Positions 1 through 42,119 of a stretch of 64,000 bases of DNA are shown one piece after another (within the stretch, counting starts at the first letter, position 1; each line of letters starts with the position of its first letter). The stretch lies in the NCBI RefSeq assembly GCF_011045215.1, contig NZ_CP049201.1; one strand, 5' to 3'. Source of the stretch: Escherichia coli (GTDB taxonomy: Bacteria; Pseudomonadota; Gammaproteobacteria; Enterobacterales; Enterobacteriaceae). The notes below the pieces were generated by a model, which worked only from the letters and a program-made list of their open reading frames with translations, was not told where the DNA came from and searched no databases. A program made the position numbers and the translations under genes.

Positions 1-2
1 GA

Positions 3-10401: not shown

Positions 10402-10402
10402 G

Positions 10403-11242: not shown

Positions 11243-11299
11243 TTAAAATGTATCGCAGGTTTTATTTTCTGTAATGCTGGTGCATGTGCGTAAATATTT

Positions 11300-11730
11300 C
11301 TTAAGAGCCGGAAACACCTCTTCCGCCTTTATCGACGATAAACCTACCGCCAGAACCGGTGATGCCATTGACTGCGGTGGCGTGGTTAAAGGTGGAGGGC
11401 GATGTGGTGCTGGAGAGCAGCAGCCGGATAAGCCTGAAGGTGGGCGGCTCGTTTGTGGTCATCCATTCAGGGGGCGTGGACATCGTCGGGCCGAAAATCA
11501 ATCTCAATAGCGGCGGTAGTCCGGGAACGCCGGTGCCGACGCTGCAACCGGCGGTTCTGAAAGCGCTGGCAGATGATAAAAGTTTAGCGGCTGAGCAAAA
11601 TGATAGTAATGCATCGTCCGATCAGAATGATAACAACGATGAGGGTGAGGAAGCGCCAGAAAAATCGGTGTGTAAGGAGTGCCTGAAAAGGGCGCAAGAA
11701 GCCGCCGCCGTTTTTGCGCCTCGTGGATAA
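11300..11730 (+). pseudogene. PAAR 3' fragment fused to vgrG 3' fragment (deletion scar of a second PAAR-vgrG copy)
   Basis: 11310-11398 is near-identical to PAAR 3' end (7090-7180); 11398-11560 near-identical to vgrG 9120-9280; a distinct C-terminal tail follows. Confidence 0.7.
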
Positions 11731-11736
11731 GGGAGA

Positions 11737-12506
11737 ATGACAATGATAACAGTATCGCCACACGCTACCGATCAAGACAAATATATTATCTGGCTGAAGC
11801 AAGCTGAATCATTCTGTTCTGCCGCTGGTTTGGATTACATAGATGTGCTTGTTGACCAGGCTGGAACCGACCAACCTTTGCAAAATGATATGCTTCATCT
11901 GTCGCCAGCCATTCACTGGTATGCCCTGTTTGAAGGAACGCCTGAAGCTGAGACGATGGAGTATTCCCCTGTAGTGTTACGCCTGTACTTTGCGCTCAGT
12001 AGCCATCGCAAATTTCTGGCACAACTGATGGCGTCATTTGCTGATACGCCGCGTCTTACTTTGTTGATATCCCCTCTTACATTCGACCTGCTGGGCGGCA
12101 TCTTCAGGTATTGTCACAGGTTCAGTGGGAAGAACAGACCGGATTGCTGCGTTACTATGATAATCGGGTGTTCCCTTTACTGTTCACACATGTTTTGACT
12201 AACGAGCAGCAGGCGACATTTACTGATATTGCGTTGTTCTGGAGCTGGTTAGACCGTGATGGTGAGATTAACTGGAAATCAGGAAGTTTTTCACCAGAAC
12301 GCAGGCTTACTGACAACCCGGAGATGAATCGGGTGGATGATGTACAGGTGGGATTGATGGGCTGTATCTGCGACGCTGAAGTCCTGATGAAGGAGAAAGC
12401 AGTCAGTGAACTCAGTCAGGAAAGCTATTTTGCCCACTGTCTTGATATTGCTTTCAGGGCCAATGACGCGAAATATTTCGGAGCTTTGCGGGACTTCGAA
12501 GGATAA
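11737..12506 (+). pseudogene. hypothetical T6SS accessory protein (adaptor-like position), apparently frameshifted
   Basis: Two overlapping ORFs (11737-12198, 12111-12506) in different frames, directly after the vgrG tail fragment. Confidence 0.35.
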
Positions 12507-12819
12507 TATTGTGGTGATGTACGGGGAGATTTATCTGTTTAAAAGTCCGTAGCTGTTAATATCAAGAGATAATCGTGAAATAAACGGAAAATCAAGCTCG
12601 ACATGTAATGGTAGTATCCATCATGTTGCATTTGTGTTCGATCGTAATGTCAGTTCACTTGGCTGCAATATATTTTGCGTAATATCATCAATGCTCTGTC
12701 GATATTCCAATGTGTGACAATCGAAAGATATGCATTTTATTTGCTTCTATGTCAAAACTTTATTGTCGTAGAAACAATACCCATCAATTAAAATCTCTCA
12801 AAGTAAAAGAACCAGCAAC

Positions 12820-13362
12820 ATGTCCAGCAAAATAAGAAATGGAATGAATATAACAAAAGTAGTTAAAGGCTGTCTGGTATTAATTTTGATGGTGATTTCT
12901 GGTTGCTCAGCAGATAATTACGACGATTATACTGCAGGTGATCTCCGGGCAATAAATCATATTAAAGGTATCAGTATTAATTGGTTCACCGTAAATGGTT
13001 ATCGGGTCCATGGTTTGGGCGGTGGATATTGCTGCATAATGTTACCAAAGAAGTGGCATTCTGGATTAAAAGCCCGGATCGAGTGGGAAGTAGACCCGAC
13101 CCCCCTTGAACCTATTGCAATGAAAAAAGAAGGTTTTGGCTATGAAGAAGATGCTTATGCTAAACATGCTGCAAATTATCAAAAATATAAAGTAATTGTT
13201 GACATCCCGGAATACGGCGCTGAACGTTGTGGCCTGACCGTTCATTTTCTGCCGTGTAATCAGATTAAAGTGACAACCGTCTGCGAGGGCTATGGCACAC
13301 CGAATTATCCTATCAAAGAACCCCGCGAGATGAAGGAACCTGCAACATGTCCAGCAAAATAA
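12820..13362 (+). CDS. lipoprotein, candidate Tle1 immunity (Tli-like)
   Basis: Lipobox ISGC after signal peptide; Cys-rich periplasmic domain; 3' end overlaps tle1 start. Confidence 0.5.
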   Translation: MSSKIRNGMNITKVVKGCLVLILMVISGCSADNYDDYTAGDLRAINHIKGISINWFTVNGYRVHGLGGGYCCIMLPKKWHSGLKARIEWEVDPTPLEPIAMKKEGFGYEEDAYAKHAANYQKYKVIVDIPEYGAERCGLTVHFLPCNQIKVTTVCEGYGTPNYPIKEPREMKEPATCPAK

Positions 13363-15440: not shown

Positions 15441-16275
15441 GTTCATAAGATTGAGGGGTTGGTGACCGGGAAAATGTAGACATGTAGTGCCTATTCACCC
15501 CAGTTCAAACCCATCCGCATCCCGCCATGCCGGAAACTTCACACTGTACTCCCAGGGAAAAATCACGTAATGCTGTTTTTTTTGTACTAAATAATTCGCA
15601 TTTTATGTTCAATAATTGAGGTGTTCCTTATTACCTAAAGCTGTTTTTCATTGCTTATACATGATCAAATACTCATTGCATAATTAAGGGGGACAAAATG
15701 GAACTTAAAAAATTGATGGAACATATTTCTATTATCCCCGATTACAGGCAAGCCTGGAAAGTGGAACATAAATTGCCAGATATTCTATCTGTTAACTATT
15801 TGCGCCGTTATTTTTGGTGCATAAGGCTGGGAAGATATAGATGATTTGGGGAAACACATCCCGATTTTTTGAAGTGATATGGTGATTTTGAAAATGGTAT
15901 TCCTGTTCACGATATCATTGCCAGAGTTGTATCCTGTATCAGTCCTGCAAAATTTCATGAGTGCTTTATTAACTGGATGCGTGACTGCCATTCCTCAGAT
16001 GATAAAGATGTCATTGCAATTGATGGAAAAACGCTTCGGCACTCTTATGACAAGAGTCGCCGCAAGGGAGCGATTTATGTCATTAAAATCCGTCTTCATA
16101 TTATTTGCGATGTCCCTGATGAACTTATTGATTTCACGTTTGAATGAAAAGGGCTGAAGAAATTATGCATGGCAGTCTCCTTTCGTTCAATAATAACAGA
16201 ACAAAAGAAAGAGCCAGAAATGACGGACAGATATTATAGCATTTCTGCTGATTTAACCGCAGAGAAGTTCGCCAC

Positions 16276-18337
<2,062 letters not shown>

Positions 18338-18648
18338 TTATTTTCAGGGATACGGAACATCGCTATTAATATTTCAAAGAAAGATAAGATACTCAAGGCA
18401 GGGGCAAGATGTAAGATGTGAAAGCAGCTGCGGACAGAGACTACCTCGCGTCAGTCCTTGCGGGGGCGGGCTTTCGTAATCTTACTCTGCAAGGGATGAT
18501 GAAAAGTGCAACTTTATTCCACGCAGCTATTTAGACAGCGTACAGTAAACAAACGAAAGTTGTTATTTCAATGGTCAGGGCAAGAGCATAAAGTGTTTAC
18601 TACACACTATGCTCTTGTCCTGGAGTCAGGTCTTGTTTGGAGGGATAA

Positions 18649-19152
18649 ATGGTAGATATTGTCGAGGCCGATAAAACGGATATTTATTTCATTCAGGAGA
18701 GTGTTTATGGCAAAATCGGGTTGCCAGCTTTTGGTAATACAATAGGACCATCCGCACAGCAGGTTGTTAAAAAGGTATTCGCTGTCGTTAAAGAACGAGA
18801 TAAAACACATGCAAAACAGAGATTATTGTTGGAATATAATGGTAACAAACTCTGGATGAATGCTATTGATGGCAGTGAAGCTATCCTACCAATAGAATTT
18901 TCTAAGCGATACGAACTTTCATTATTCAATACTACTAATTTTGGAGAAGATCCTTTTCCTGATGTTAATTTATATAATAATATGAAATCAAGTTTTTTTG
19001 TAAGGTTTGGTGGAACATCCCATCCCGAGGCTTGGGCTATTTATAATGCAAGTACGAAAGAGGTTAAATATATAGAAACTGCAAGAGAAATTGATAAAAT
19101 ATTCAGTGATTTTAACTTGAGTGGTGCATTGCCAATTCACATTGGTCAATGA
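18649..19152 (+). CDS. hypothetical protein
   Basis: 167-aa ORF in AT-rich DNA between ISAs1 fragments; no recognisable motif. Confidence 0.4.
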   Translation: MVDIVEADKTDIYFIQESVYGKIGLPAFGNTIGPSAQQVVKKVFAVVKERDKTHAKQRLLLEYNGNKLWMNAIDGSEAILPIEFSKRYELSLFNTTNFGEDPFPDVNLYNNMKSSFFVRFGGTSHPEAWAIYNASTKEVKYIETAREIDKIFSDFNLSGALPIHIGQ

Positions 19153-19218
19153 TTTTTTAAATTGTGTGATTAAATAATTGAACATTAATGATGATTTATA
19201 GCATCATTATTCTATAAC

Positions 19219-19731
19219 ATGAATAAACGGATTGAATGTGTTATGTTAAAAATGAGTTTATACGTAATAATATTGTTATTTTCCTTTCAGATTAGTGCAG
19301 CCATTACTAGCAAGGAAAGTGAGGTTGTTTCACCATTATTAATGGATGTTAATTCTTCACTAACAATGGAAAATATTTCTGAATTATCCACATCATCGGA
19401 ACCATCGCAACAGGGGGTATTTCCTGTAATATGTACTCGACTTCATCCTGGTTCCGTAATGAAACGCCAGTTATTAACCGGCTGGGGGCCTGTTTTTATA
19501 ATTGGTGATGATCCTTTTTCTCTGCGCTGGATGAGTGAACATCTGGAGATCCTTAAATCGCTAAATGCCCTTGGTTTGGTTGTTAATGTTGAATCAGTAG
19601 AACGAATGGAGGTATTACAGCAGCGGGCTGATGGGTTATTGTTATTGCCAGTTATCTGCGATAATTTCGTGCAAACTCTGCAATTAAATGCTTATCCGGT
19701 ATTAATCACAGAGATGGAAATATCACAATGA
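19219..19731 (+). CDS. hypothetical exported or membrane protein
   Basis: 170 aa with N-terminal hydrophobic segment (LYVIILLFSFQISAA); AT-rich. Confidence 0.4.
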   Translation: MNKRIECVMLKMSLYVIILLFSFQISAAITSKESEVVSPLLMDVNSSLTMENISELSTSSEPSQQGVFPVICTRLHPGSVMKRQLLTGWGPVFIIGDDPFSLRWMSEHLEILKSLNALGLVVNVESVERMEVLQQRADGLLLLPVICDNFVQTLQLNAYPVLITEMEISQ

Positions 19732-19759
19732 TTAATAACATAATTACTGCAAATAATAT

Positions 19760-19990
19760 TGTAATTTTGAAAATGGTAATCCTGTTCACGACACCATAAT
19801 TAGAGTTATGTCTTGTATCCGTTCAGTATAATTTCACGAGTGCTTTATTAACTGGATGCGTGACTGCCATTCATCAAATGACAAAGACGTCATCGCGATT
19901 GATGGAAAAGCACTTCCACACTCCTATGATAAAAGTGGTCGCAGGAGAGCGGGCTTTCGTAGTCTTCCCCGACTCTCCCCAGCCCTAAAC
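19760..19990 (+). pseudogene. ISAs1-family (H-repeat) transposase internal fragment (yafF-like)
   Basis: Encodes [53 protein letters not shown]; paralogous to 15890-16060. Confidence 0.6.
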
Positions 19991-20004
19991 ACAACCCCCA
20001 CTCA

Positions 20005-23886: not shown

Positions 23887-24125
23887 AACGAAAAGCCCCT
23901 TACTTGTAGGAGGTCTGACCACTTGTGATGATATGGTTGTAGTGGATGTAAAAACATTTAGCAATGTGTTTACAATATAATTACAACAAAGCTCACATTG
24001 TTGCTGTTTTTATCCGCACTTCAGGTCAAAAAGTCCTGGTCATAGCACCTGCCCGTACTTCTCGCTTTTGGCGGTATCCGGTACACTGCATTTTGTCTAT
24101 TACATTTATGCTGAAGGATATCCTC

Positions 24126-24704
24126 ATGTACCAGGATCTTATTCGTAACGAACTGAACGAAGCGGCGGAAACGCTGGCTAACTTTTTAAAAGATGACGCC
24201 AATATTCACGCCATTCAGCGCGCGGCGGTCCTGTTAGCAGACAGCTTTAAAGCCGGTGGCAAAGTGCTTTCCTGCGGCAACGGCGGTTCCCATTGCGACG
24301 CCATGCACTTTGCCGAAGAGTTGACCGGTCGCTACCGTGAAAACCGTCCGGGCTACCCGGCGATTGCCATTTCTGACGTTAGTCATATTTCCTGCGTCGG
24401 TAATGATTTCGGTTTCAATGATATTTTCTCCCGCTACGTTGAAGCGGTAGGCCGCGAAGGCGATGTACTGCTGGGGATCTCCACATCTGGTAACTCTGCA
24501 AACGTGATCAAAGCGATCGCAGCGGCGCGTGAGAAGGGGATGAAAGTGATCACCCTGACCGGTAAAGACGGCGGCAAAATGGCTGGCACGGCGGATATCG
24601 AAATTCGCGTTCCGCACTTTGGTTATGCCGACCGCATTCAGGAGATTCACATTAAAGTGATCCATATCCTGATCCAGTTGATTGAAAAAGAGATGGTTAA
24701 GTAA
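24126..24704 (+). CDS. gmhA: D-sedoheptulose-7-phosphate isomerase GmhA
   Basis: 192 aa, SIS domain ([16 protein letters not shown]). Confidence 0.95.
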
Positions 24705-24707
24705 GTC

Positions 24708-24865
24708 TGGCGTAGGCCGGATAAGACGTTTACGCCGCATCCGGCATTTGTGCGCTGATGCCTGATGCGACGCTGACGCGTCTTATCATGCCTACAAATC
24801 TGTACGCGAACCGTAGGCCGAATAATGCGTTCACGCCGCATCCGACCTGAAAATTCTTAAATCAA
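24708..24865. repeat. REP/BIME palindromic elements
   Basis: GCCGGATAAG...GCCGCATCCGGC and TGCCTGATGCGACGCTGACGCGTCTTATCATGCCTACA units. Confidence 0.6.
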
Positions 24866-24909
24866 TCTTCGCCGGGGGCCATGCGCTCCCGCTGTTGTGG
24901 AGGTTACCC

Positions 24910-25677
24910 ATGTGCGAATTGCTCGGGATGAGCGCCAACGTCCCTACCGATATCTGCTTTAGTTTCACCGGTCTGGTGCAGCGTGGTGGTGGAACCGGGC
25001 CACATAAAGATGGCTGGGGCATTACCTTTTACGAAGGTAAAGGCTGTCGCACATTTAAAGATCCGCAACCCAGCTTTAACTCACCTATCGCCAAACTGGT
25101 CCAGGACTACCCGATAAAATCCTGTTCGGTGGTGGCTCATATTCGCCAGGCTAATCGGGGCGAGGTGGCGCTGGAAAATACTCACCCGTTTACCCGCGAG
25201 TTATGGGGGCGTAACTGGACTTATGCCCATAACGGGCAACTGACGGGCTACAAATCACTGGAAACCGGCAACTTCCGCCCGGTAGGCGAAACCGACAGCG
25301 AAAAAGCCTTCTGCTGGCTCCTGCATAAATTAACGCAGCGTTACCCGCGCACACCGGGCAACATGGCGGCGGTATTTAAATATATCGCCTCACTGGCGGA
25401 TGAACTGCGGCTGAAGGGCGTTTTCAACATGCTGCTTTCTGACGGGCGCTATGTGATGGCATATTGCTCGACTAATTTACACTGGATCACCCGCCGCGCG
25501 CCGTTTGGCGTGGCAACGTTGCTGGATCAGGATGTGGAAATCGACTTCAGCTCGCAGACCACACCGAATGATGTGGTCACGGTGATTGCAACACAGCCGC
25601 TGACGGGCAATGAAACCTGGCAAAAGATTATGCCAGGCGAATGGCGCTTATTTTGCCTCGGGGAGCGTGTAGTTTGA
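24910..25677 (+). CDS. yafJ: class II glutamine amidotransferase YafJ
   Basis: Starts MCELLG (N-terminal catalytic Cys after Met), 255 aa. Confidence 0.9.
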
Positions 25678-26388
25678 TGCCAGCTGTGGTTGCACAACTT
25701 CGTGGCTTAACGGCTTGCTGACCACGTAACGACCATTGACCACAGAAACGGTCGGTGGCTTACGGGTTTGCTCAAAGTAGTCGTAACCCGGCTTCAGTTG
25801 CTCCCAGAAGTCCTTAAAGTCGGAATATTTATGGCGCTTCATATTAGCGTCGGTCATGCGGAACGGGTAAATACTCACTTGCACGCTCGGCTGACCAAAC
25901 ACCAGCGCACCAGTAACGAACTGGAAGATCTCATCAATACCCTGATTGGTCATCGCGTAGCAGCCGATGGAAACACAATCGCCGTGGATCATCAGGTATT
26001 TCCCTTCATAACCATGCGCACGGTCATAGGCATTGGGGAAACCAATATTAATCGCTTTGTAGTAACGGCTGTCTGGTTTTAACTGATTACGCTGGACGCT
26101 ATAAAACCCTTCCGGGCTTTTGAAATCGCCCTGACGCTGTTTTGGCCCTAAGCCGCCGGAATATTTACAGATTTTATAACTGTCGAGCAGCTGATATTGC
26201 TCGCCCATTTTGACGTAGAGATCGAGCGTACGTTCTTCCTTGAAGATCTGGATGTAGACAGGGGATCCCATCAACTGCTGCTTATACTCTTTGCTCACTG
26301 GCGTGGTCGAGCTACTGCTGCCCAGCAAACCGGCAAACGAAACGCACGGGATCAACAACATCGCAAGAATTAATGCGATTTTACGCAT
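25648..26388 (-). CDS. yafK: L,D-transpeptidase family protein YafK
   Basis: 246 aa, signal peptide, YkuD-like domain with catalytic region HGDCVSIGC. Confidence 0.9.
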
Positions 26389-26543
26389 ACTGCTTATTCC
26401 TTGATAAAACGGTTACACACGCCAGGACGGCAAAATGGATCCCAAATCGGAATAGTCTGGATTTGGAAGGCTCACATTATCACCAAAAGAGTTTTACGCA
26501 AGCCTGTCGGCGCAGGGTTTACAAATTTCATCGGAAGCGGGCT

Positions 26544-26822
26544 TTACCCAAAGAGCGCCGCGTGAGTTCCAGTTCTCTCAAATCGTAAAAGTTTATCGGT
26601 AAGTTTGTAAATCAGGATCCAGTCCGGTTCGACATGAGCATCGCGATAACCTTTCCATGAACCTTGCAGCGGGTGGTCTTTATAAACAGCTGGAAGCGGT
26701 AAAGTATTATTGATAAGAAGCGTCATAAGATATTTCAATTTATTCATATCCATATGACGCTTTTGTGCAAGTTTTACATCCTTTGAAAATTGTCCCGAGT
26801 ATTCAATATCCCTTTGAAACAT
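26544..26822 (-). CDS. yafQ: type II toxin YafQ (RelE/ParE fold mRNA interferase)
   Basis: 92 aa; directly downstream of dinJ with 2-nt spacing. Confidence 0.9.
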   Translation of the reverse strand: MFQRDIEYSGQFSKDVKLAQKRHMDMNKLKYLMTLLINNTLPLPAVYKDHPLQGSWKGYRDAHVEPDWILIYKLTDKLLRFERTGTHAALFG

Positions 26823-26824
26823 AT

Positions 26825-27085
26825 TTAAATTCCTAATTTATCAAATAAATCATCGGCGTCTTTGGCCTTATGAACATCAACGCCAGCTTCGCTGTTTTTG
26901 ATTGATTGAATAGTTAATTGATTAGGCTCGCGTAAATCAAACGGCAATGCCTTTTCACGCGCGACCTTTGTGAGGGTTATGCGAACCAGGTCAGAGATGG
27001 TCAGCCCCATCCCGGCCAGTACGTCCGCCGCCTGATTCTTCAGATCTTCATCGATTCGTGCGCGAACAAACGCGTTAGCAGCCAT
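26825..27085 (-). CDS. dinJ: antitoxin DinJ
   Basis: 86 aa RHH-type antitoxin upstream of yafQ. Confidence 0.9.
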   Translation of the reverse strand: MAANAFVRARIDEDLKNQAADVLAGMGLTISDLVRITLTKVAREKALPFDLREPNQLTIQSIKNSEAGVDVHKAKDADDLFDKLGI

Positions 27086-27294
27086 TGGGGTATCTCCTGT
27101 GCTGTATATTTATTCAGCTTGAATTGTAGCTCAAATGAGCAACAGCGGCAATTCATGAGCAATTCAATAAACTGATGTATTTACATAATTCACTGAAATA
27201 TATATGTTAATTTTATAATAATGGTTTATTAAGTTTGTTCAGAAACGATCCGGGATACACTGCAACATTAAAGCATGACCAGCCATTATTGAGT

Positions 27295-28044
27295 ATGTCC
27301 TTGCCGTCGATTCCATCCTTTGTATTGTCGGGATTACTGTTGATTTGTTTGCCGTTTTCTTCATTTGCCAGCGCCACCACATCACATATCTCTTTCAGCT
27401 ACGCCGCCCGCCAGCGGATGCAAAACCGTGCGCGTTTATTAAAACAGTACCAAACCCATCTGAAAAAACAGGCCAGCTATATTGTGGAAGGCAATGCCGA
27501 AAGCAGAAGGGCGCTACGCCAGCACAACCGGGAGCAGATAAAACAGCATCCAGAATGGTTTCCTGCACCGCTCAAGGCGAGTGACAGACGCTGGCAGGCG
27601 CTGGCGGAAAACAACCACTTTCTAAGCAGTGACCATCTGCATAACATCACCGAAGTGGCGATTCACCGCCTGGAACAGCAACTTGGCAAGCCTTACGTCT
27701 GGGGCGGCACGCGGCCCGATAAAGGCTTCGACTGTAGCGGGTTGGTTTTTTATGCCTACAACAAGATCCTTGAGGCTAAGCTCCCGCGCACAGCCAATGA
27801 GATGTATCACTACCATCGGGCAACGATTGTGGCGAACAACGACCTGCGCCGGGGAGATTTGCTGTTTTTCCATATTCACAGTCGTGAGATTGCCGACCAT
27901 ATGGGGGTGTATCTGGGCGACGGTCAGTTTATTGAGTCAACGCGCACCGGGGAAACCATTCGGGTATGTCGGTTAGCTGAACCTTTCTGGCAGGATCATT
28001 TTTTAGGCGCGCGGCGGATTTTGACGGAGGAGACGATTTTGTAG
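27295..28044 (+). CDS. yafL: NlpC/P60-family peptidase lipoprotein YafL
   Basis: Signal peptide; NlpC/P60 catalytic Cys in GFDCSGLV and His downstream; 249 aa. Confidence 0.85.
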   Translation: MSLPSIPSFVLSGLLLICLPFSSFASATTSHISFSYAARQRMQNRARLLKQYQTHLKKQASYIVEGNAESRRALRQHNREQIKQHPEWFPAPLKASDRRWQALAENNHFLSSDHLHNITEVAIHRLEQQLGKPYVWGGTRPDKGFDCSGLVFYAYNKILEAKLPRTANEMYHYHRATIVANNDLRRGDLLFFHIHSREIADHMGVYLGDGQFIESTRTGETIRVCRLAEPFWQDHFLGARRILTEETIL

Positions 28045-28120
28045 GACGGATAAGGCGTTTACGCCGCATCCGGCAATTGTGCGCGGATGCCTGATGCGAC
28101 GCTGACGCGTCTTATCAGTA
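28045..28120. repeat. REP element
   Basis: GGCGTTTACGCCGCATCCGGCA...TGCCTGATGCGACGCTGACGCGTCTTATCA. Confidence 0.6.
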
Positions 28121-28220
28121 TCTACAAATTTGTGCGTTTTTGCGAGCTGCTTTCCCGTTATTCCATCACCTCATTGTCGACCTTTCCTTTTCCTCTTACC
28201 GTTGAGAAAAAGGAGTCGCT

Positions 28221-28718
28221 ATGTCGGAATATCGTCGTTATTACATCAAGGGGGGAACATGGTTTTTCACGGTAAATTTACGGAATCGTCGAAGCCATCT
28301 TCTGACCACCCAGTTCCAGACGCTCCGTAACGCCATTATTAACGTTAGGCGAGACAGACCTTTTGAAATTAACGCCTGGGTCGTTTTGCCGGAGCATATG
28401 CATTGCATATGGACATTACCCGAAAGCGATGATGATTTTTCCTCTCGCTGGCGGGAGATTAAAAAGCAATTCACCCATGCTTGTGGATTGAAAAATATCT
28501 GGCAACCGCGTTTTTGGGAGCATGCCATTCGTAATACAAAAGACTATCGCCATCATGTTGATTATATTTATATAAATCCAGTGAAACATGGTTGGGTAAA
28601 GCAGGTGAGTGATTGGCCATTCTCAACGTTCCATCGCGATGTAGCGCGAGGGTTATATCCCATCAATTGGGCGGGAGACGTTACGGATTTGAGTGCCGGG
28701 GAGCGTATTATTTTATAA
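28221..28718 (+). CDS. rayT: REP-associated tyrosine transposase RayT (IS200/IS605-like HuH)
   Basis: 165 aa, HuH motif region (PEHMHCIW), flanked by REP clusters. Confidence 0.85.
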   Translation: MSEYRRYYIKGGTWFFTVNLRNRRSHLLTTQFQTLRNAIINVRRDRPFEINAWVVLPEHMHCIWTLPESDDDFSSRWREIKKQFTHACGLKNIWQPRFWEHAIRNTKDYRHHVDYIYINPVKHGWVKQVSDWPFSTFHRDVARGLYPINWAGDVTDLSAGERIIL

Positions 28719-28719
28719 T

Positions 28720-29135
<416 letters not shown>

Positions 29136-29137
29136 TC

Positions 29138-30850
29138 TTACATCAACGCCCCCATAATCTTCAACTCCAGCTCGTCCGGCACTTCATTATACGACAGCAC
29201 ATGCAGTCCCGGCGCAAACAATCTCGCATAGCGCGCCAGCAAAGGGCGAAGCTGCGGCGGCACCAGCAGCACCGGGTCTTTCCCCGCCGCTTTCATCTGC
29301 TCTTTTACCTGCGGCATCGTGTTCTGGAACTGGTTGAGCATATTCGGGTCGACCGGCACGCTGTCGAGCATCACTTTCCCGCCCTGTTGCGCCTGATTCA
29401 CCACGTTGGTCAGCAGATTTTCCAGCTCATTATTCAGCGTATACACCGTCAGCTCCTGCTTGCGAACAAACGGATGGGTAATGCTGCGCCGCAGCGCCAG
29501 GCGCACATCGGCTGCCAGCAGAATATGATCTTTGGTCACCGCGCTACTGGCGACCAGCACGGTGGCGATGGTGACGATATCGCGCAGGGAAACGCCTTCA
29601 GTCAGCAGCGCCCGGTACACTTTCAGCAACTGGCTGTAATTGAGCGCCGCGCTTAAATCCTCCGCCAGGCGCGGTGCCATCGACGACAAACGATTATGCA
29701 ACTGCGTAATATCATCATAGTTAAACAAATCAGGAATATAGCTACGCACAATCTTATTCACATGGGTGGCAATCACGCTGGCGCTGTCGATCACCTGATA
29801 CCCCATATTCAGCGCCTTCGCTTTCTGCGCGGGCTGGATCCAGGTCACCGGCATCCCATACGCCGGGTCGTTCCCCAGCACGCCGTCTATCTCGCCGTAG
29901 GTTTCGCTGGAGGGCAGGGCCATCAGTTTATCCGCCGGAATATCCGCTTCATCAGCCTTTATGCCGTTGATGAAAATGGCGTACTGGCTGGGCTTAAGGC
30001 GGAAGTTTTCCCGAATGCGGATCTCCGGCAGCAGCACGCCGTTGCCGTCGGATATCACCTGCCGCACGCCGCGAATCCGCTGGGTGAGCGGGTTGCCCTG
30101 TGCTTTATCGACCAGCGCCACCAGCTTGTAACCGAGGCTTAAACTGATAGGCTCAATCAGCGGTATCGTTTCCCAACTGACCTGCTGCTCGCTGGTTTCG
30201 GTGATGGTGCGGGTCAGCGTTTCGAGGCTTTTCTCTTCCGCCTCCGCCGCCTGCGGGCGTTTGCTCATCCGCCAGCCGGTAAAGCCAAGCAGGGCGCTGA
30301 ACAGCAAAAATGGCAGGTGCGGCATTCCCGGCACCACCGCCAGCACGAACATAATTCCGGTGGCGGTGTAGAGCACCGACGGGCTCGCCAGCAACTGGTG
30401 GCGCACGTCATGGGCGATATCGCCGTTGTCGCTGACGCGGGTAACGATAATCGCCGCCGCGGTGGAAAGCAGCAGGGAAGGGATCTGCGCCACCAGCCCG
30501 TCGCCGATGGTCATCAGCACATACTGCTGGAAGGCGGCATCGGCGCTCAGGTTGTATTTAAATATCCCGATACAGACGCCGCCGATCAGGTTGATGGCCA
30601 GAATCATCATCCCGGCGATGGCATCCCCGCGCACAAACTTCGATGCCCCGTCCATCGCGCCGTAGAAATCGGCCTCGCTGGCGACATCTTTACGCCGGGT
30701 TTGCGCCTGCGCCTGGTTGATCAACCCGGCGTTAAGATCGGCGTCAATCGCCATCTGCTTGCCGGGCATCGCGTCCAGGGTGAAGCGGGCAGAAACCTCG
30801 GAAATACGCTCGGCCCCTTTGGTGACGACGATAAAGTTGATTGTAAACAG
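29138..30850 (-). pseudogene. lfhA: FlhA-like flagellar export protein fragment (Flag-2 locus remnant lfhA)
   Basis: FlhA cytoplasmic and C-terminal TM region (FTLDAMPGKQMAIDADLNAGLI...), N-terminal about 110 aa missing; the 5' part of the long ORF is antisense of lafU. Confidence 0.75.
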
Positions 30851-31607
30851 CGTCAGTAAATCCGAGCGTGAAAGCATTATCGCCGCGCTGCACGGGCAGT
30901 CGATTTTCAACGGTGGCGGGCTGTCGCCGTTAAATAAAATCAGTCCGACGCATCCGCCGAAACCTGCCACCGTGGCGGTGCCGGAAGAGACGGAGAAAAA
31001 AGTGCGCGACGTCAACGAGAAAACGGCGCTGCTGAAGAAGAAATCCGCCACCGAGCTTGGCGAGCTGGCAACCAGTATCAACACCATCGCCCGTGATGCG
31101 CATATGGAAGCGAATCTGGAGATGGAGATTGTCCCGCAGGGATTACGCGTGCTGATTAAAGACGACCAGAACCGCAATATGTTTGAACGCGGCAGCGCGA
31201 AGATTATGCCGTTCTTTAAAACGCTGCTGGTGGAGTTAGCGCCAGTGTTCGACTCGCTCGATAACAAAATTATTATTACCGGGCATACCGATGCGATGGC
31301 CTACAAAAACAATATCTACAACAACTGGAACCTTTCGGGTGACCGCGCGCTTTCGGCTCGTCGGGTGCTGGAAGAGGCCGGAATGCCGGAAGATAAAGTG
31401 ATGCAGGTAAGCGCAATGGCGGATCAGATGCTGCTGGACGCCAAAAATCCGCAAAGCGCGGGCAACCGGCGCATTGAGATTATGGTGCTGACTAAAAGCG
31501 CGTCCGATACGCTGTATCAATACTTTGGTCAGCATGGAGATAAAGTGGTGCAGCCGCTGGTGCAAAAGCTGGATAAGCAGCAGGTGCTTTCACAACGAAC
31601 GCGCTAA
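30850..31607 (+). pseudogene. lafU: MotB-like protein fragment with OmpA-like C-terminal domain (Flag-2 remnant lafU/mbhA)
   Basis: OmpA/MotB peptidoglycan-binding motif (ITGHTDAMAY...NWNLSGDRALSARRVL), lacks N-terminal TM region. Confidence 0.7.
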
Positions 31608-31677
31608 ATGCTGAATCTTTACGCATTTCTCAAACCCTGAAATCACTGTATACTTTACCAGTGTTGAGAGGTGAGCA

Positions 31678-32733
31678 ATGCGTAAAATCATTCATGTGGA
31701 TATGGACTGCTTTTTCGCAGCGGTGGAGATGCGCGACAATCCCGCCCTGCGCGATATCCCTATTGCTATTGGCGGCAGCCGCGAACGTCGGGGGGTGATC
31801 AGCACCGCCAATTATCCCGCGCGTAAATTTGGCGTACGTAGCGCTATGCCGACAGGGATGGCGCTCAAATTATGCCCGCATCTCACCTTGCTTCCGGGGC
31901 GCTTTGACGCCTACAAAGAAGCCTCAAATCATATCCGTGAAATCTTCTCGCGCTACACCTCGCGCATTGAACCGTTGTCACTGGATGAAGCTTATCTCGA
32001 TGTCACCGACAGCGTCCATTGCCACGGTTCTGCGACCCTCATCGCCCAGGAAATCCGCCAGACGATTTTCAACGAGCTGCAACTGACGGCGTCTGCGGGC
32101 GTGGCACCAGTAAAGTTTCTCGCCAAAATCGCCTCCGACATGAATAAACCCAACGGCCAGTTTGTGATTACGCCGGCAGAAGTTCCGGCATTTTTACAAA
32201 CCTTACCACTGGCAAAAATCCCCGGCGTCGGCAAAGTCTCGGCGGCAAAACTGGAAGCGATGGGGCTGCGGACCTGCGGTGATGTACAAAAGTGTGATCT
32301 GGTGATGCTGCTTAAACGCTTTGGCAAATTTGGCCGCATTTTGTGGGAGCGTAGTCAGGGGATTGACGAACGCGATGTTAACAGCGAACGGTTGCGAAAA
32401 TCCGTCGGCGTGGAACGCACGATGGCGGAAGATATTCATCACTGGTCTGAATGTGAAGCGATTATCGAGCGGCTGTATCCGGAACTTGAACGCCGTCTGG
32501 CAAAGGTAAAACCTGATTTACTGATTGCTCGACAGGGGGTGAAATTAAAATTCGACGATTTTCAGCAAACCACCCAGGAGCACGTCTGGCCGCGGCTGAA
32601 TAAAGCTGATCTAATCGCCACCGCGCGTAAAACCTGGGATGAACGCCGCGGCGGGCGCGGTGTGCGTCTGGTGGGGCTGCATGTGACGTTGCTGGATCCG
32701 CAAATGGAAAGACAACTGGTGCTGGGATTATGA
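31678..32733 (+). CDS. dinB: DNA polymerase IV (Y-family)
   Basis: 351 aa, [18 protein letters not shown]-terminus. Confidence 0.95.
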
Positions 32734-33182
32734 ATAACATACAAATAAGAAACTATCAGCCTGGCGATTTTCAGCAACTATGCGCTATTTTCCTTAGAGC
32801 GGTTACGATGACCGCCAGTCAGCATTATTCACCACAACAAATTGCTGCCTGGGCGCAGATTGACGAATCTCGCTGGAAGGAGATACTCGCGAAATCACAA
32901 GTGCGGGTTGCAGTCATTAATGCACAACCGGTTGGTTTTATTTCCCGCATTGAACATTATATCGATATGTTATTTGTTGACCCTGAATACACCCGCCGTG
33001 GGGTTGCCAGCGCTTTGTTAAAACCTTTGATTAAGTCTGAATCCGAACTTACGGTGGACGCCAGCATAACCGCAAAACCCTTTTTTGAACGTTATGGTTT
33101 TCAGACAGTTAAGCAGCAGCGCGTTGAATGCCGTGGAGCTTGGTTTACTAATTTTTATATGCGATATAAACCGCAACATTAA
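32730..33182 (+). CDS. yafP: GNAT-family acetyltransferase YafP
   Basis: 150 aa; 4-nt overlap with dinB stop. Confidence 0.85.
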
Positions 33183-33415
33183 ATCCAGCTTGCAATGAAA
33201 ATAACGCCCGCCTGGTATGTGCGCGTTTTCTTATTCCACAAACTGCAAGGAGGTAAATCATGACAAATCCTTTATCAATGACTCTTTGCAGACCTTTCCA
33301 GGATTAATTCTTTTTTTCTTGCCCTGGATTCGTCTGCCATTTCCTGATTTTTATATTTATATACTCTAAATAATTCGAGTCGCAGTACATGCAACTTGAA
33401 GTATGACGAGTATAA

Positions 33416-33682
33416 ATGGAATGGTACATGGGCAAATATATTCGTCCCTTATCCGATGCGGTATTTACCATCGCATCTGATGACCTGTGGATCGAGAGTT
33501 TAGCGATCCAACAATTACACACCACGGCAAATTTACCCAACATGCAGCGCGTAGTGGGGATGCCAGATTTACACCCCGGACGCGGCTACCCGATTGGCGC
33601 AGCGTTCTTCTCTGTTGGTCGTTTTTACCCGACAAGACGTCGCTGTAACGGTGCTGGAAACAGAAACGGGCCGCTACTCTGA
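33416..33682 (+). pseudogene. ykfJ: RtcB-like ligase N-terminal fragment (ykfJ-like)
   Basis: 88-aa ORF ending in frame-shifted tail; sits upstream of prfH as in K-12. Confidence 0.5.
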
Positions 33683-34151
33683 CACGCTGCGTTCGGCGCT
33701 GGTTTCTCTGGATGGCGATAACGCATGGGCATTAAGCGAAAGCTGGTGTGGCACTATTCAGTGGATTTGTCCGAGTCCGTATCGGCCTCATCATGGGCGC
33801 AAAAACTGGTTTCTGGGCATTGGGCGTTTTACCGCTGATGAGCAGGAGCAATCCGATGCGATCCGGTATGAGACGCTGCGTTCGTCGGGGCCGGGTGGTC
33901 AACATGTCAATAAAACCGACTCGGCGGTACGCGCCACGCATTTGGCATCCGGTATTAGCGTGAAGGTTCAGTCAGAGCGTAGTCAGCATGCTAACAAGCG
34001 GCTGGCACGATTGCTGATTGCCTGGAAGCTGGAGCAACAGCAACAGGAAAATAGCGCAGTGCTGAAATCGCAGCGGCGAATGTTCCATCACCAGATTGAA
34101 CGTGGCAACCCGCGACGAACGTTCACAGGGATGGCTTTTATCGAAGGATAA
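33594..34151 (+). pseudogene. prfH: peptide chain release factor homolog PrfH, N-terminally truncated
   Basis: GGQ motif ([17 protein letters not shown]); N-terminal region out of frame. Confidence 0.7.
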
Positions 34152-34207
34152 TGAAGGATGAAACTGCCGGAAGGCGATTAAACGCCATCCGGCAGCAAAT
34201 CAAATAA

Positions 34208-35665
34208 TTACTTCGCCGGAATTTCTTTCAGCAGTTCAGTCAGCAGTGTCCAGTAATGACCTACGCTTTCGATGTGAACTTGCTCATCCGGAGAGTGTGG
34301 ACCGGTGATTGTTGGCCCGATAGAAACCATGTCCATTTCCGGATACGGTTTTTTGAACAGACCACATTCCAGGCCCGCGTGGATAATCTGGATGTTCGGC
34401 GTCTTGTTGAACAGGCGCTGATAGGTTTCACGTACCAGATGCATCACCGGAGAATTAGCGTCCGGCTGCCAGCCAGGATATGCGCCTTTTGCTTCGGTTT
34501 TCGCGCCAGCCAGTTTACCCAGCGAATCCAGCATGCTCACCACGTAGTCTTTACCGCTGTCGATCAGAGAACGGATCAGGCAGTGAATTTCTACGTTATT
34601 GTCAGTCATGGTCACCACACCGACGTTCAGGGAGGTTTCGACCACACCTTTTGCCACGTCGGAATTGCGGATCACACCGTTCGGGGTGGCGTTCAGCAGA
34701 CGAATAAAGGTATCGCGAGATTTCGCAATCAGGGCAGCTTTATCGTTCGCTACAGAGTCCAGCAACAAGGCCAGATTTTTCTCTTTCTCTGCCAGCTCGT
34801 TTTTCAGGATCTCCTGATAGGTATTCACCAGAGATTTCAGGGTGTCGACTTTATCAGCTGCGACAGCAATGGTCGCAAAGGCTTCACGCGGGATGGCGTT
34901 ACGCAGTGTGCCGCCGTTGAAATCAATAAGACGCAGATCCAGTTCTTCTGCATGACCCGCCAGGAAGCGCACCAGCAGTTTGTTGGCATTACCGAGGCCA
35001 ACGTGGATTTCACCGCCGGAGTGACCGCCTTTCAGACCTTTTAAGGTTAACTTGAAGGTTTCAAAACCAGCTGGAACCGCTTCACGATCTAAATGCAGGT
35101 TGGAGGTGAAGTCGATACCCCCCGCGCAACCCATGTAGATTTCACCTTCTTCTTCGGAGTCGGTGTTAATCAGAATATCAGCCTGCAACCAGTTGCTCTG
35201 TAAGCCGAACGCACCGTCCATACCGGCTTCTTCGGTCATGGTCAGCAGCACTTCCAGCGGGCCGTGAACCACGTTTTCGTCAGCCAGAACCGCCAGCGCA
35301 GAGGCCATACCAATGCCGTTATCCGCACCCAGCGTGGTGCCGCGCGCTTTAACCCATTCGCCATCAATATAAGGCTGGATAGGATCTTTCGTGAAGTCAT
35401 GCACAGTGTCGTTATTTTTCTGCGGCACCATATCGAGGTGGGCCTGCAAGACGACCGGTTTACGATTTTCCATACCTGCGGTAGCAGGTTTACGAATCAG
35501 GATATTACCTACCTGATCGCGTTCGACATGGAAACCTTTCTCTTTTGCCCAACCAACAATGTATTCAGCGAGTTGCTCTTCATGATAGGACGGGTGAGGA
35601 ATAGAACAGATTTTGGCAAAAATATCCCACAGCGGCTGTGGAGATAATTGAGACAGTTCAGACAC
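34208..35665 (-). CDS. pepD: cytosol non-specific dipeptidase PepD (M20 family)
   Basis: 485 aa, M20 metal-binding motifs (HLDMVPQ, ADNGIG). Confidence 0.95.
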   Translation of the reverse strand: MSELSQLSPQPLWDIFAKICSIPHPSYHEEQLAEYIVGWAKEKGFHVERDQVGNILIRKPATAGMENRKPVVLQAHLDMVPQKNNDTVHDFTKDPIQPYIDGEWVKARGTTLGADNGIGMASALAVLADENVVHGPLEVLLTMTEEAGMDGAFGLQSNWLQADILINTDSEEEGEIYMGCAGGIDFTSNLHLDREAVPAGFETFKLTLKGLKGGHSGGEIHVGLGNANKLLVRFLAGHAEELDLRLIDFNGGTLRNAIPREAFATIAVAADKVDTLKSLVNTYQEILKNELAEKEKNLALLLDSVANDKAALIAKSRDTFIRLLNATPNGVIRNSDVAKGVVETSLNVGVVTMTDNNVEIHCLIRSLIDSGKDYVVSMLDSLGKLAGAKTEAKGAYPGWQPDANSPVMHLVRETYQRLFNKTPNIQIIHAGLECGLFKKPYPEMDMVSIGPTITGPHSPDEQVHIESVGHYWTLLTELLKEIPAK

Positions 35666-35925
35666 GTTAAGTCTCCTTGTCGATCACCCGCAAAACAGTA
35701 TTGCAGGTCACAGGGTTAGCAGAAAATGTTGTCAACACAAGACATGCTTGCGAGATATGTTTGAGAATACCACTTTATCCCGCGTCAGGGAGAGGCAGTG
35801 CGTAAAAAGACGCGGACTCATGTGAAATACTGGTTTTTAGTGCGCCAGATCTCTATAATCTCGCGCAACCTATTTTCCCCTCGAACACTTTTTAAGCCGT
35901 AGATAAACAGGCTGGGACACTTCAC

Positions 35926-36384
35926 ATGAGCGAAAAATACATCGTCACCTGGGACATGTTGCAGATCCATGCACGTAAACTCGCAAGCCGACTGATGCCT
36001 TCTGAACAATGGAAAGGCATTATTGCCGTAAGCCGTGGCGGTCTGGTACCGGGTGCGTTACTGGCGCGTGAACTGGGTATTCGTCATGTCGATACCGTTT
36101 GTATTTCCAGCTACGATCACGACAACCAGCGCGAGCTTAAAGTGCTGAAACGCGCAGAAGGCGATGGCGAAGGCTTCATCGTTATTGATGACCTGGTGGA
36201 TACCGGTGGTACTGCGGTTGCGATTCGTGAAATGTATCCAAAAGCGCACTTTGTCACCATCTTTGCAAAACCGGCTGGTCGTCCGCTGGTTGATGATTAT
36301 GTTGTTGATATCCCGCAAGATACCTGGATCGAACAGCCGTGGGATATGGGCGTCGTATTCGTCCCGCCAATCTCCGGTCGCTAA
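35926..36384 (+). CDS. gpt: xanthine-guanine phosphoribosyltransferase
   Basis: 152 aa, PRPP-binding motif [11 protein letters not shown]. Confidence 0.95.
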
Positions 36385-36475
36385 TCTTTTCAACGCCTGG
36401 CACTGCCGGGCGTTGTTCTTTTTAACTTCAGGCAGGTTACAATAGTTTCCAGTAAGTATTCTGGAGGCTGCATCC

Positions 36476-37720
36476 ATGACACAGGCAAACCTGAGCGAAA
36501 CCCTGTTCAAACCCCGCTTTAAACATCCTGAAACCTCGACGCTAGTCCGCCGCTTTAATCACGGCGCACAACCGCCTGTGCAGTCGGCCCTTGATGGTAA
36601 AACCATCCCTCACTGGTATCGCATGATTAACCGTCTGATGTGGATCTGGCGCGGCATTGACCCACGCGAAATCCTCGACGTCCAGGCACGTATTGTGATG
36701 AGCGATGCCGAACGTACCGACGATGATTTATACGATACGGTGATTGGCTACCGTGGCGGCAACTGGATTTATGAGTGGGCCACCCAGGCGATGGAGTGGC
36801 AACAAAAAGCCTGTGCGGAAGAAGATCCGCAACTCAGTGGTCGTCACTGGCTGCATGCGGCTACGTTGTACAACATTGCCGCCTATCCTCATCTGAAAGG
36901 AGATGACCTGGCCGAGCAAGCGCAGGCTTTGTCAAACCGCGCCTATGAAGAGGCCGCTCAGCGTCTACCGGGCACGATGCGGCAGATGGAGTTTACCGTA
37001 CCTGGCGGTGCGCCCATCACCGGCTTTTTGCATATGCCGAAAGGCGATGGCCCGTTCCCGACGGTATTAATGTGTGGTGGTCTGGATGCGATGCAGACGG
37101 ACTATTACAGCCTGTATGAACGTTATTTTGCGCCGCGCGGCATTGCGATGCTGACTATTGATATGCCGTCGGTGGGCTTTTCTTCAAAATGGAAGCTCAC
37201 CCAGGACTCCAGCCTGTTGCATCAGCACGTCTTAAAGGCACTGCCTAACGTACCGTGGGTGGATCACACTCGCGTCGCGGCCTTTGGTTTCCGTTTCGGC
37301 GCTAACGTTGCCGTGCGTCTGGCATACCTTGAATCGCCGCGTCTGAAAGCGGTTGCCTGTCTTGGTCCGGTAGTTCATACCCTGTTGAGTGATTTTAAGT
37401 GCCAGCAACAGGTGCCGGAAATGTATCTTGACGTTCTGGCGAGTCGTTTGGGGATGCATGATGCTTCCGATGAAGCGTTGCGCGTGGAGCTGAATCGCTA
37501 TTCATTAAAAGTGCAAGGATTGCTGGGACGTCGCTGCCCAACGCCAATGTTATCAGGCTACTGGAAGAACGATCCGTTCAGCCCGGAAGAGGACTCACGC
37601 TTAATCACCTCATCATCTCATGACGGTAAATTATTAGAGATCCCATTTAACCCGGTGTATCGGAATTTTGACAAAGGTCTTCAGGAAATCACCGACTGGA
37701 TCGAAAAACGCTTGTGTTAA
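36476..37720 (+). CDS. frsA: esterase FrsA (fermentation/respiration switch protein)
   Basis: 414 aa alpha/beta hydrolase; conserved neighbour of gpt and crl. Confidence 0.9.
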
Positions 37721-38179
<459 letters not shown>

Positions 38180-38217
38180 GTGAAATGTGCCGGATGCATC
38201 ACATCCGGCAATAATCA

Positions 38218-39273
38218 TTAAAACTGATAGGTCATGCCAACCGCGACAATATCATCATTATTAATATTCAATTTGTTATCGCTATCCAGTTGGTTGATTT
38301 TATAATCAACAAACGCTGACATATTTTTGTTGAAATAATACGTAGCACCGACGTCGATATAATTGACCAGATCTTCATCACCGATACCTTCAATATCTTT
38401 CCCTTTCGATAAGACATAACCCAGCGATGGACGCAGACCAAAGTCAAACTGGTATTGAGCGACCGCTTCAAAGTTCTGTGTCTTATTGGCAAAGCCGCCA
38501 GTTATTGGCGTCATTTTGCGAGTTTCAGAATAGAAAGTTGCCAGATAAATATTATTGGCATCGTATTTCAGACCTGTTGCCCATGCTTCTGCTCGCTTGC
38601 CTGTGCCACGGCTTTGCAGGTTCTGCTCGTTGGTGCGATCTGAGTTGGTATAGGCCCCACTAATGGCGAAATCGCTGCCGCCAAAGTCATATGTCAATGA
38701 CGTGCCGAAGCCATCGCCGTTTTGCTTTTTAACGTCGCGGTTTTCGTTTTTCCCTTGATATTGCAGGGTTAAGTTCAGACCATCGATAACGCCGAAGAAG
38801 TCGGTGTTCCTATACGTCGCCAGACCGCTGGCGCGTTTGGTCATAAAGTTGTCGGTCTGCGCCGAGGAGTCGCCACCAAATTCCGGGAACATATCGGTCC
38901 AGGCTTCCACGTCATACAACGCGCCCAGGTTACGGCCATAGTCGAAAGAACCCAAATCTTTATACTTCAATCCGGCAAAAGCGAGACGCGTTTTTTGCTG
39001 TGCAGTATCACTCTCCGCTTTATTTCCGGCAAACTCCGCTTCCCAACGACCATAACCAGTCAGTTGATCGTTAATTTGTGTTTCGCCTTTAAAACCAAAA
39101 CGGATATAACTCTGGTCGCCATCTTTACTGTCGTTATCACTCATATAATGCATGGCTTTAACTTTGCCATAGACATCCAGTTTATTACCGTCTTTGTTAT
39201 ATATTTCTGCGGCCTGTACGGATGCAGATGCCACAATGCCCATCACCACTAATGCCAGAGTGCTCTTTTTCAT
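38218..39273 (-). CDS. phoE: phosphate-starvation porin PhoE
   Basis: 351 aa from MKKSTLAL; porin C-terminal ...GMTYQF. Confidence 0.95.
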
Positions 39274-39560
39274 TTTCATTCCTGATTTTAATTAACGCGC
39301 GAATATTCTGCGGGAGAGCCCCGTTGAAAACAGGAAAGTTTTTAACCTGAGATTGTTAAAGATATATTACAGATTAATGATATTCTTAAAATGTGGTAAT
39401 TTAGTAAATCTGTAATAAAAGCGTAAACAACTGCCGCTACGCTTGCTGATCCCGCGCAACAAAACACCATGCTTTGCTCGCAGATGGTTGGCAACCGACG
39501 ACAGTCCTGCTAAAACGTTCGTTTGATATCATTTTTCCTAAAATTGAATGGCAGAGAATC

Positions 39561-40664
39561 ATGAGTGACAGCCAGACGCTGGTGGTAAAACTCGGCACCA
39601 GTGTGCTAACAGGCGGATCGCGCCGCCTGAACCGTGCCCATATCGTTGAACTTGTTCGCCAGTGCGCGCAGTTACATGCCGCCGGGCATCGGATTGTTAT
39701 TGTGACGTCGGGCGCGATCGCCGCCGGACGTGAGCACCTGGGTTACCCGGAACTGCCAGCGACTATCGCCTCGAAACAACTGCTGGCGGCGGTAGGGCAG
39801 AGTCGACTGATTCAACTGTGGGAACAGCTGTTTTCGATTTATGGCATTCACGTCGGGCAAATGCTGCTGACTCGTGCTGATATGGAAGACCGTGAACGCT
39901 TCCTGAACGCCCGCGACACCCTGCGTGCGTTGCTCGATAACAATATCGTTCCGGTAATCAATGAGAACGATGCTGTCGCTACGGCAGAGATTAAAGTCGG
40001 CGATAACGACAACCTTTCTGCACTGGCGGCGATTCTGGCGGGTGCCGATAAACTGTTGTTACTGACCGATCAAAAAGGTTTGTATACCGCTGACCCGCGC
40101 AGCAATCCGCAGGCAGAACTGATTAAAGATGTTTACGGCATTGATGACGCACTGCGCGCGATTGCCGGTGACAGCGTTTCAGGCCTCGGAACTGGCGGCA
40201 TGAGTACCAAATTGCAGGCCGCGGACGTGGCTTGCCGTGCGGGTATCGACACCATTATTGCCGCGGGCAGCAAGCCGGGCGTCATTGGTGATGTGATGGA
40301 AGGCATTTCCGTCGGTACGCTGTTCCATGCCCAGGCGACTCCGCTTGAAAACCGTAAACGCTGGATTTTCGGTGCGCCGCCTGCGGGTGAAATCACGGTA
40401 GATGAAGGGGCAACTGCCGCCATTCTGGAACGCGGCAGCTCCCTGTTGCCGAAAGGCATTAAAAGCGTGACTGGCAATTTCTCGCGTGGTGAAGTCATCC
40501 GCATTTGCAACCTCGAAGGCCGCGATATCGCCCACGGTGTCAGCCGTTACAACAGCGATGCATTACGCCGTATTGCCGGACACCACTCGCAAGAAATTGA
40601 TGCAATACTGGGATATGAATACGGCCCGGTTGCCGTTCACCGTGATGACATGATTACCCGTTAA
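39561..40664 (+). CDS. proB: glutamate 5-kinase
   Basis: 367 aa from [16 protein letters not shown]; amino-acid kinase and PUA domains. Confidence 0.95.
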
Positions 40665-42043: not shown

Positions 42044-42119
42044 GCCGATATAGCTCAGTTGGTAGAGCAGCGCATTCGTAATGCGAAGGTCGTAGGTTCG
42101 ACTCCTATTATCGGCACCA
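42044..42119 (+). tRNA. thrW: tRNA-Thr (anticodon CGU)
   Basis: GCCGATATAGCTCAGTTGGTAGAGCAGCGCATTCGTAATGCGAAGGTCGTAGGTTCGACTCCTATTATCGGCACCA, cloverleaf with CGT anticodon and 3' CCA. Confidence 0.9.

Follow-up and report, generated by a model that had tools for sequence, protein, structure and literature searches.

In the 64,000 nt of Escherichia coli DNA analyzed here (contig NZ_CP049201.1, henceforth the window), dinB is followed directly by yafP, which raises the question of whether the yafN-yafO toxin–antitoxin pair that separates these genes in K-12 was lost from this lineage or was never part of it. An earlier note, made from the sequence alone, had put the matter as an alternative between a pair that was never acquired and a pair that was precisely lost; this either/or holds, precise loss is the favored branch, and both branches are already in print. 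What the window carries is very probably the SOS-regulated dinB operon in its common two-gene form, a polymorphism that has been published together with its possible origins.

The dinB–yafP Locus of the Window

The ORF listing, the sequence itself, and a profile search identify dinB (31678–32733, plus strand) as an intact gene for DNA polymerase IV of 351 aa, and the ORF listing and a profile search identify yafP (32730–33182, plus strand) as an intact gene for a GNAT-family N-acetyltransferase of 150 aa. DinB scores 546.9 bits against the NCBIfam equivalog NF002677 (cut-off 256) over residues 1–345, and its translation has the catalytic acidic residues (D8 and, in the SLDEAY motif, D103 and E104), while YafP scores 323 bits against NF007338 (cut-off 146) with profile positions 1–150 of 150 covered. 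The two proteins are, respectively, 99.7% and 98.7% identical at the amino acid level to those of the four-gene strain A30. The junction is spanned by GGGATTATGAATAAC at 32724–32738, in which ATGA (32730–32733) is common to the dinB stop TGA (32731–32733) and the yafP start ATG (32730–32732), as the earlier note had reported in describing a 4-nt overlap. This overlap is contained in a single copy of ATTATGA (32727–32733, plus strand), a motif that occurs in two copies flanking the yafNO cassette in four-gene strains.

A consensus scan upstream of dinB found a candidate sigma-70-like promoter at 31627–31654 on the plus strand (−35 TTCTCA from 31627, a 16-nt spacer, and −10 TATACT at 31649–31654), a pattern match only with 9 of 12 consensus positions, the location of which would fit the published LexA-regulated dinB promoter. 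Its −10 hexamer is overlapped by a putative LexA (SOS) box, CACTGTATACTTTACCAGTG (31644–31663, plus strand), which we take to be the dinB SOS box; the pattern CTG-N10-CAG occurs only once within 31500–33300, at 31646–31661. The Shine-Dalgarno region of dinB, GAGAGGTGAG (31666–31675, plus strand), forms a duplex of −7.1 kcal/mol with the 3′ end of 16S rRNA. The corresponding duplex upstream of yafP reaches −4.0 kcal/mol in the window, too near the ATG, and +0.4 kcal/mol in four-gene strains, so that by these energies a usable Shine-Dalgarno sequence is absent from yafP in both arrangements. A scan for intrinsic terminators downstream of yafP gave counts at the level of shuffled sequence and nothing convincing, and an Rfam scan of the operon gave no match.

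From this arrangement we infer that the LexA-repressed promoter at 31627–31663 would drive a single mRNA for DNA polymerase IV and YafP, that YafP is most likely made by ribosomes that finish dinB at its UGA and start again at the AUG overlapping it (AUGA), and that YafP synthesis would be coupled to, and limited by, DinB translation. Published work describes dinB as repressed by LexA (PMC7167474); for strain CFT073, which has the two-gene arrangement, Gutierrez et al. (2011, NAR, PMC3105422) report a single mRNA from the dinB promoter and induction of a YafP-YFP fusion both by mitomycin C and in stationary phase. The same authors proposed frameshifting instead of termination–reinitiation (PMC3105422). 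Because a separate YafP of 150 aa starting at the ATG is matched end to end by its family model, termination–reinitiation would fit better than frameshifting.

The yafN and yafO genes were sought over the whole 64-kb window. Six-frame tblastn searches gave best E values of 0.74 for YafN and 2.1 for YafO, and a sensitive blastn search with the 755-bp cassette returned no match, the best E value in any of these searches being 0.48; a YafN–YafO type II toxin–antitoxin system, composed of a PhdYeFM-type antitoxin and a YafO toxin (PF13957), is thus absent from the window. Outside the dinB operon there is an intact DinJ–YafQ type II system on the minus strand, in which the genes for the YafQ toxin (26544–26822, 92 aa; TIGR00053, 119.7 bits, cut-off 87.25) and the DinJ antitoxin (26825–27085, 86 aa; TIGR02384, 83.7 bits, cut-off 45.65) are 2 nt apart (26822/26825) and have the lengths annotated by RefSeq in related strains (for dinJ, locus L024). 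The earlier note had thus correctly described dinB and yafP as having no yafN-yafO between them and the upstream dinJ-yafQ pair as intact, both of its genes being full length and above the family cut-offs; the small yafN and yafO ORFs elsewhere in the operon that it named as a possible refutation occur nowhere in the window, and its statement that K-12 has yafNO between dinB and yafP agrees with the K-12 derivative strain RR1.

The gene order around the operon, gmhA(lpcA)-yafJ-dpaA-yafQ-dinJ-yafL-rayT-lfhA'-lafU-dinB-yafP-rtcB'-prfH'-pepD-gpt-frsA-crl-phoE-proB, is the usual one for E. coli according to the annotation of the closest complete genomes. Upstream of dinB, 29138–31607 is what remains of the lateral-flagella (Flag-2) cluster after its deletion: an lfhA pseudogene, flhA-like and truncated, lies on the minus strand and abuts lafU, and the LafU model NF005273 matches the ORF at 30717–31607. 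In E. marmotae, intact motA/motB-like genes and a sigma factor gene are found upstream of dinB. Downstream of yafP, 33416–34151 holds an N-terminal fragment of rtcB and a C-terminal fragment of prfH left by an internal deletion, as in K-12-like strains; both genes are intact in O6:K2:H1-type strains, E. marmotae, and K. aerogenes. Five matches to the Rfam family naRNA4, which is REP/BIME-derived, lie in 24715–24792 and 28044–29060; four of them flank the REP-associated tyrosine transposase gene rayT (28221–28718), and three of these four are arranged in tandem at 28781–29060, where they are the source of repetitive short ORFs.

Farther out, beyond thrW at 42044–42119, which encodes tRNA-Thr(CGT), lies a prophage that has an integrase, a terminase, a portal protein, and a KAP NTPase; this 22-kb part of the window (42044–64000) is covered to at least 80% in only 34 complete genomes. 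Positions 1–20000 form an island of variable content, in which fimbrial genes occur together with copies of IS3 and IS630, a VgrG/Tle1-like T6SS effector cluster, and what is left of an ISAs1 element; no complete E. coli genome covers at least 80% of it. Within 24000–40000, identity over 16 kb is at most 98.0% to any of 5426 complete E. coli genomes (a collection without Shigella), and identity over the 601-bp junction region is at most 98.8% to any of them. The exact YafP protein of the window (32730–33182) is on record in one SRA-run assembly only, SRR11014969. The lineage of the window is unusual and may be a rare one within E. coli or a Shigella.

Frequency of the Two-Gene Operon in E. coli

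To count the two arrangements, a 200-nt query centered on the dinB–yafP junction was used with contiguous coverage required, and the uninterrupted junction was found in 2569 of 5426 complete E. coli genomes (47%), the yafNO segment being present in 2847 of the same 5426. The two counts sum to 5416 against 5414 genomes with the locus, so that essentially all genomes are accounted for, and the two-gene form is one of two alleles that are about equally common in E. coli. This agrees with published figures: of 98 sequenced genomes from E. coli and Shigella, 40% had only dinB and yafP, as did 50% of ECOR strains, according to Gutierrez et al. (PMC3105422), who also described the ATGA overlap of the two-gene operon, explained this form by recombination within the four-gene operon between two of its ATGA sequences, counted at least three independent losses of yafNO, and reported four genes for E. 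fergusonii. The opposite view is taken in the review of Fraikin et al. (2020), in which dinB-yafP of strains such as UTI89 is called an "undisturbed bicistronic operon" and the toxin–antitoxin pair is considered to have been inserted into dinB-yafP (PMC7167474). For the window itself, its operon is an ordinary allele shared with about half of E. coli and has little consequence.

The junction sequence of the window is identical to that of four other loci (L002, L003 from an O6:K2:H1 strain, L020, and L021). Outside the junction the alleles vary, and within E. coli both dinB and yafP show unusual diversity and mosaicism, with nucleotide diversities of about 3.6% and 3.3%, respectively; the dS of dinB within the species is about 0.2, as high as between species, and linkage between SNPs decays within about 50 bp.

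Origin of the Two-Gene Junction

Alignment of the window to the four-gene strain A30 and to two-gene strains shows that the extra segment of four-gene strains is a clean 759 bp containing its own promoter, yafN, and yafO. We examined ten four-gene loci, which represent several flank haplotypes of E. coli as well as E. whittamii and a divergent species representative labeled "E. coli" and cover at least three Escherichia species, and in all ten ATTATGA is found at both ends of the cassette, the left copy in the context GGG-ATTATGA-TGTATAC and the right copy in the context TAT-ATTATGA-ATAAC. The direct repeat is therefore 7 bp, longer than the 4 bp published. A deletion between the two copies would yield exactly the sequence of the window and leave both proteins unchanged.

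Derivatives of the four-gene operon with partial losses were also encountered. Escherichia sp. E1V33 (L004:3676–4004) has a third operon state, dinB-yafN-yafP, in which 379 bp of yafO have been deleted at a TTAT microhomology. What is left is yafN, as an orphan antitoxin gene, and a stub of 10 codons, which once more shares ATGA with the start of yafP; this deletion demonstrates that microhomology deletions do happen in the dinB operon. In E. coli CM2 (L012:1652–2051), a 1-bp insertion has shifted the reading frame of yafO, now annotated as a pseudogene, next to an intact yafN; this is another route to toxin loss. When plasmids were searched for a mobile source, the only copies of the cassette were F-prime or derived from the chromosome, and the only other matches were Klebsiella homologs with approximately 35% identity.

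Comparison with other genera bears on whether the cassette was gained or lost. In Kluyvera, Raoultella, and K. aerogenes, dinB ends with a TAA stop codon that is followed by 2 nt and the yafP ATG, and in C. amalonaticus a TAA stop codon is followed by about 5 nt to the likely yafP ATG, so that none of these four cassette-free genera has the ATGA overlap. The recorded yafP start in C. amalonaticus (L027:2990–3020) is an ATA codon overlapping the dinB stop; the in-frame ATG 9 nt downstream, which aligns with the E. coli start, appears to be the more plausible initiation codon. Set against these outgroups, the two-gene junction of Escherichia looks like the scar of a cassette loss. The four-gene operon itself is found in Pseudocitrobacter, where scaffolds from human-gut metagenomes (L033:1597–3858 and L034) have the order nqrM-dinB-yafN-yafO-yafP-pepD. 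The left cassette junction in these scaffolds, TGA|TGTATAC, is that of E. coli, and nucleotide identity to E. coli is 78.6% for yafN, 76.9% for yafO, and 80.5% for dinB (at the protein level, YafN and YafO share about 84% identity with their E. coli counterparts); the shared left junction and a divergence similar to that of dinB indicate that the cassette is old at the dinB–yafP site. Among the Pseudocitrobacter protein clusters, that of YafO has 17 members and that of YafP 61, which hints at a presence/absence polymorphism in this genus too.

The Pseudocitrobacter operon was reached through a YafO homolog with 84% identity, and it overturned the view, drawn from five cassette-free taxa, that the cassette is specific to Escherichia and that the two-gene form is ancestral for the family. 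Another apparent YafO homolog, with 79% identity (L040, from the SRR27475577 assembly), was rejected, as it is an E. coli dinB-yafNOP operon with systematic G-to-A conversion, as in bisulfite-like reads. More generally, YafO "homologs" with 70–79% identity from SRA runs resembled intermediate taxa, and the protein collection includes artefactual "divergent homologs" of this kind. Apart from an irrelevant GNAT protein of a planctomycete, a single YafP query against genome contigs matched only four close relatives within Escherichia, with no match in E. fergusonii or E. albertii.

Both two- and four-gene alleles are found on flank haplotype blocks that differ greatly from one another, and inside a given block the two kinds of allele have almost the same sequence. 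The four-gene strain PMV-1 and the two-gene strain AVS0947 differ at 2 sites in the ±300 bp around the junction, and A30 (four genes) and O145 RM9872 (two genes) differ at 3 sites; the window differs from the latter two strains at 7 and 8 sites, respectively. Precise loss is favored because the junction of the window is exactly the expected deletion product, because cassette-free genera have a TAA-spacer-ATG junction, and because the cassette of Pseudocitrobacter is old at the site. We therefore consider it probable that the window allele descends from a cassette deletion that took place in its own line or was recombined in from a deleted allele. A counterpoint to loss is that the deletion product has the same sequence as an ATGA-overlap allele that was never interrupted; together with the four cassette-free genera, the overlap form of E. 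marmotae makes a long-standing polymorphism shuffled by recombination possible.

One alternative, which we regard as possible but somewhat doubtful, is that the lineage once had yafNO and that homologous recombination, in place of a de novo deletion, exchanged this allele for DNA of a two-gene donor. Both flanks, dinB as well as yafP, are indeed highly mosaic, and the best-matching strains differ for the 5′ part of dinB, the junction region, and yafP of the window. Such replacement still needs an original deletion or an ancestral two-gene allele, making it a route of transmission and not an origin, and no imported block specific to two-gene alleles is apparent; cassette state shows no association with flanking SNPs, the highest r2 being 0.24, a value inside the permutation range. 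This linkage disequilibrium was considered as a test for recurrent deletion, and it was dropped after calibration against SNP pairs, for which r2 is already 0.18 at 26–50 bp in these extremely mosaic flanks; because linkage decays this fast, the null result for SNP association cannot separate recurrent deletion from an old polymorphism.

That the pair was never acquired, with the uninterrupted dinB-yafP being ancestral and the K-12 form derived by insertion of a mobile toxin–antitoxin cassette with a 7-bp target duplication, seems to us rather improbable, even though several observations are in keeping with it. In five taxa outside E. coli, namely E. marmotae (which has the two-gene form with the ATGA overlap), C. 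amalonaticus, K. aerogenes, Raoultella, and Kluyvera, yafP comes immediately after dinB with no cassette between them; the perfectly placed 7-bp duplication, with both reading frames preserved, resembles a target-site duplication; YafNO-like cassettes with 65–68% identity are present in unrelated contexts in Klebsiella and other taxa; and insertion is the view held in the 2020 review (PMC7167474). An uninterrupted ancestor is, however, less easy to reconcile with outgroup junctions of the TAA-spacer-ATG type, which have no ATGA overlap, with a Pseudocitrobacter cassette that has the same left junction and host-like divergence and is thus old at the site, or with two-gene alleles on haplotype blocks nearly identical to those of four-gene alleles, and the cassette sequence has neither terminal inverted repeats nor a recombinase. 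Finally, an artefact, whether yafNO genes that are present and were missed or a junction produced by assembly collapse, is next to impossible, given that protein and nucleotide searches of the whole window were negative, that the junction is contiguous in 2569 complete genomes, and that an independent SRA-run assembly (L009) is 100% identical over dinB and yafP, and nothing was found in support of it.

Possible Cassette Dynamics and Comparison with Known Operons

Loss of the cassette by deletion, the preferred reading for the window, may be one part of a longer history. Across ten four-gene operons (L001, L005, L007, and L010–L016), mean dS is 0.195 for dinB, 0.133 for yafP, 0.105 for yafN, and 0.041 for yafO. 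The contrast is sharpest between species: yafO of E. coli A30 and E. whittamii has 1 synonymous difference in 84 sites (dS 0.012), whereas dinB of the same pair has 52.5 in 254 (dS 0.24) and yafP has a dS of 0.18. At synonymous sites, the 3′ part of yafN, like yafO, has diverged much less than dinB and yafP on either side. Because yafO differs by 23% at the nucleotide level between E. coli and Pseudocitrobacter, its low dS reflects recent homogenization within Escherichia and not general constraint, which suggests that the toxin gene was recently exchanged between Escherichia species and that gains by recombination may also occur. Tentatively, and with less confidence than in the deletion itself, yafNO could be seen as an old resident at dinB–yafP that cycles between precise excision via the 7-bp repeats and renewed spread by recombination. 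If so, the window would be a snapshot of the loss phase of a selfish cassette, and the published accounts, "lost at least three times" and "inserted", would both be incomplete. The 7-bp repeat, the Pseudocitrobacter cassette, and the low dS of yafO are features of other genomes and are of potential interest for the population genetics of chromosomal toxin–antitoxin systems.

Among known systems, the proposed expression of yafP is similar to that of ATGA-type overlapping cistrons translated by termination–reinitiation, with which dinB-yafP shares both the overlap and a poor downstream Shine-Dalgarno sequence. Such coupled cistrons are general among bacterial operons; for dinB-yafP coupling is proposed from the sequence, and the sole experimental paper proposes frameshifting.

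The four-gene dinB-yafN-yafO-yafP operon of E. coli K-12 was reportedly described by McKenzie et al. in 2003. It has the dinB promoter, the LexA box, the DinB and YafP proteins, and the neighboring genes in common with the window, which differs from it in being without the 759-bp segment that holds the YafN-autoregulated internal promoter, yafN, and yafO. Unlike K-12, the window thus has no toxin–antitoxin module in the operon and no second promoter feeding yafP. In K-12, YafO is a ribosome-dependent mRNA interferase, and the internal promoter is autoregulated by YafN (Christensen-Dalsgaard et al. 2010, PMC2814082). SOS induction in the strain of the window would give DNA polymerase IV and YafP without the YafO mRNA interferase and without the internal yafN promoter; as this strain has no yafNO, results obtained with yafNO of K-12 are not transferable to it.

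The closest counterpart is the two-gene operon of CFT073 and UTI89, in which the gene pair, the ATGA overlap, and the absence of yafN-yafO are all as in the window, and so is the neighborhood, with lafU upstream and rtcB/prfH and pepD downstream. Compared with the O6:K2:H1 strain (L003), the window has nucleotide identities of 96.5% in dinB and 95.1% in yafP, the differences being allelic only, and its flank haplotype near the junction is closest to those of the four-gene strain A30 and of two-gene O145:H28 strains.
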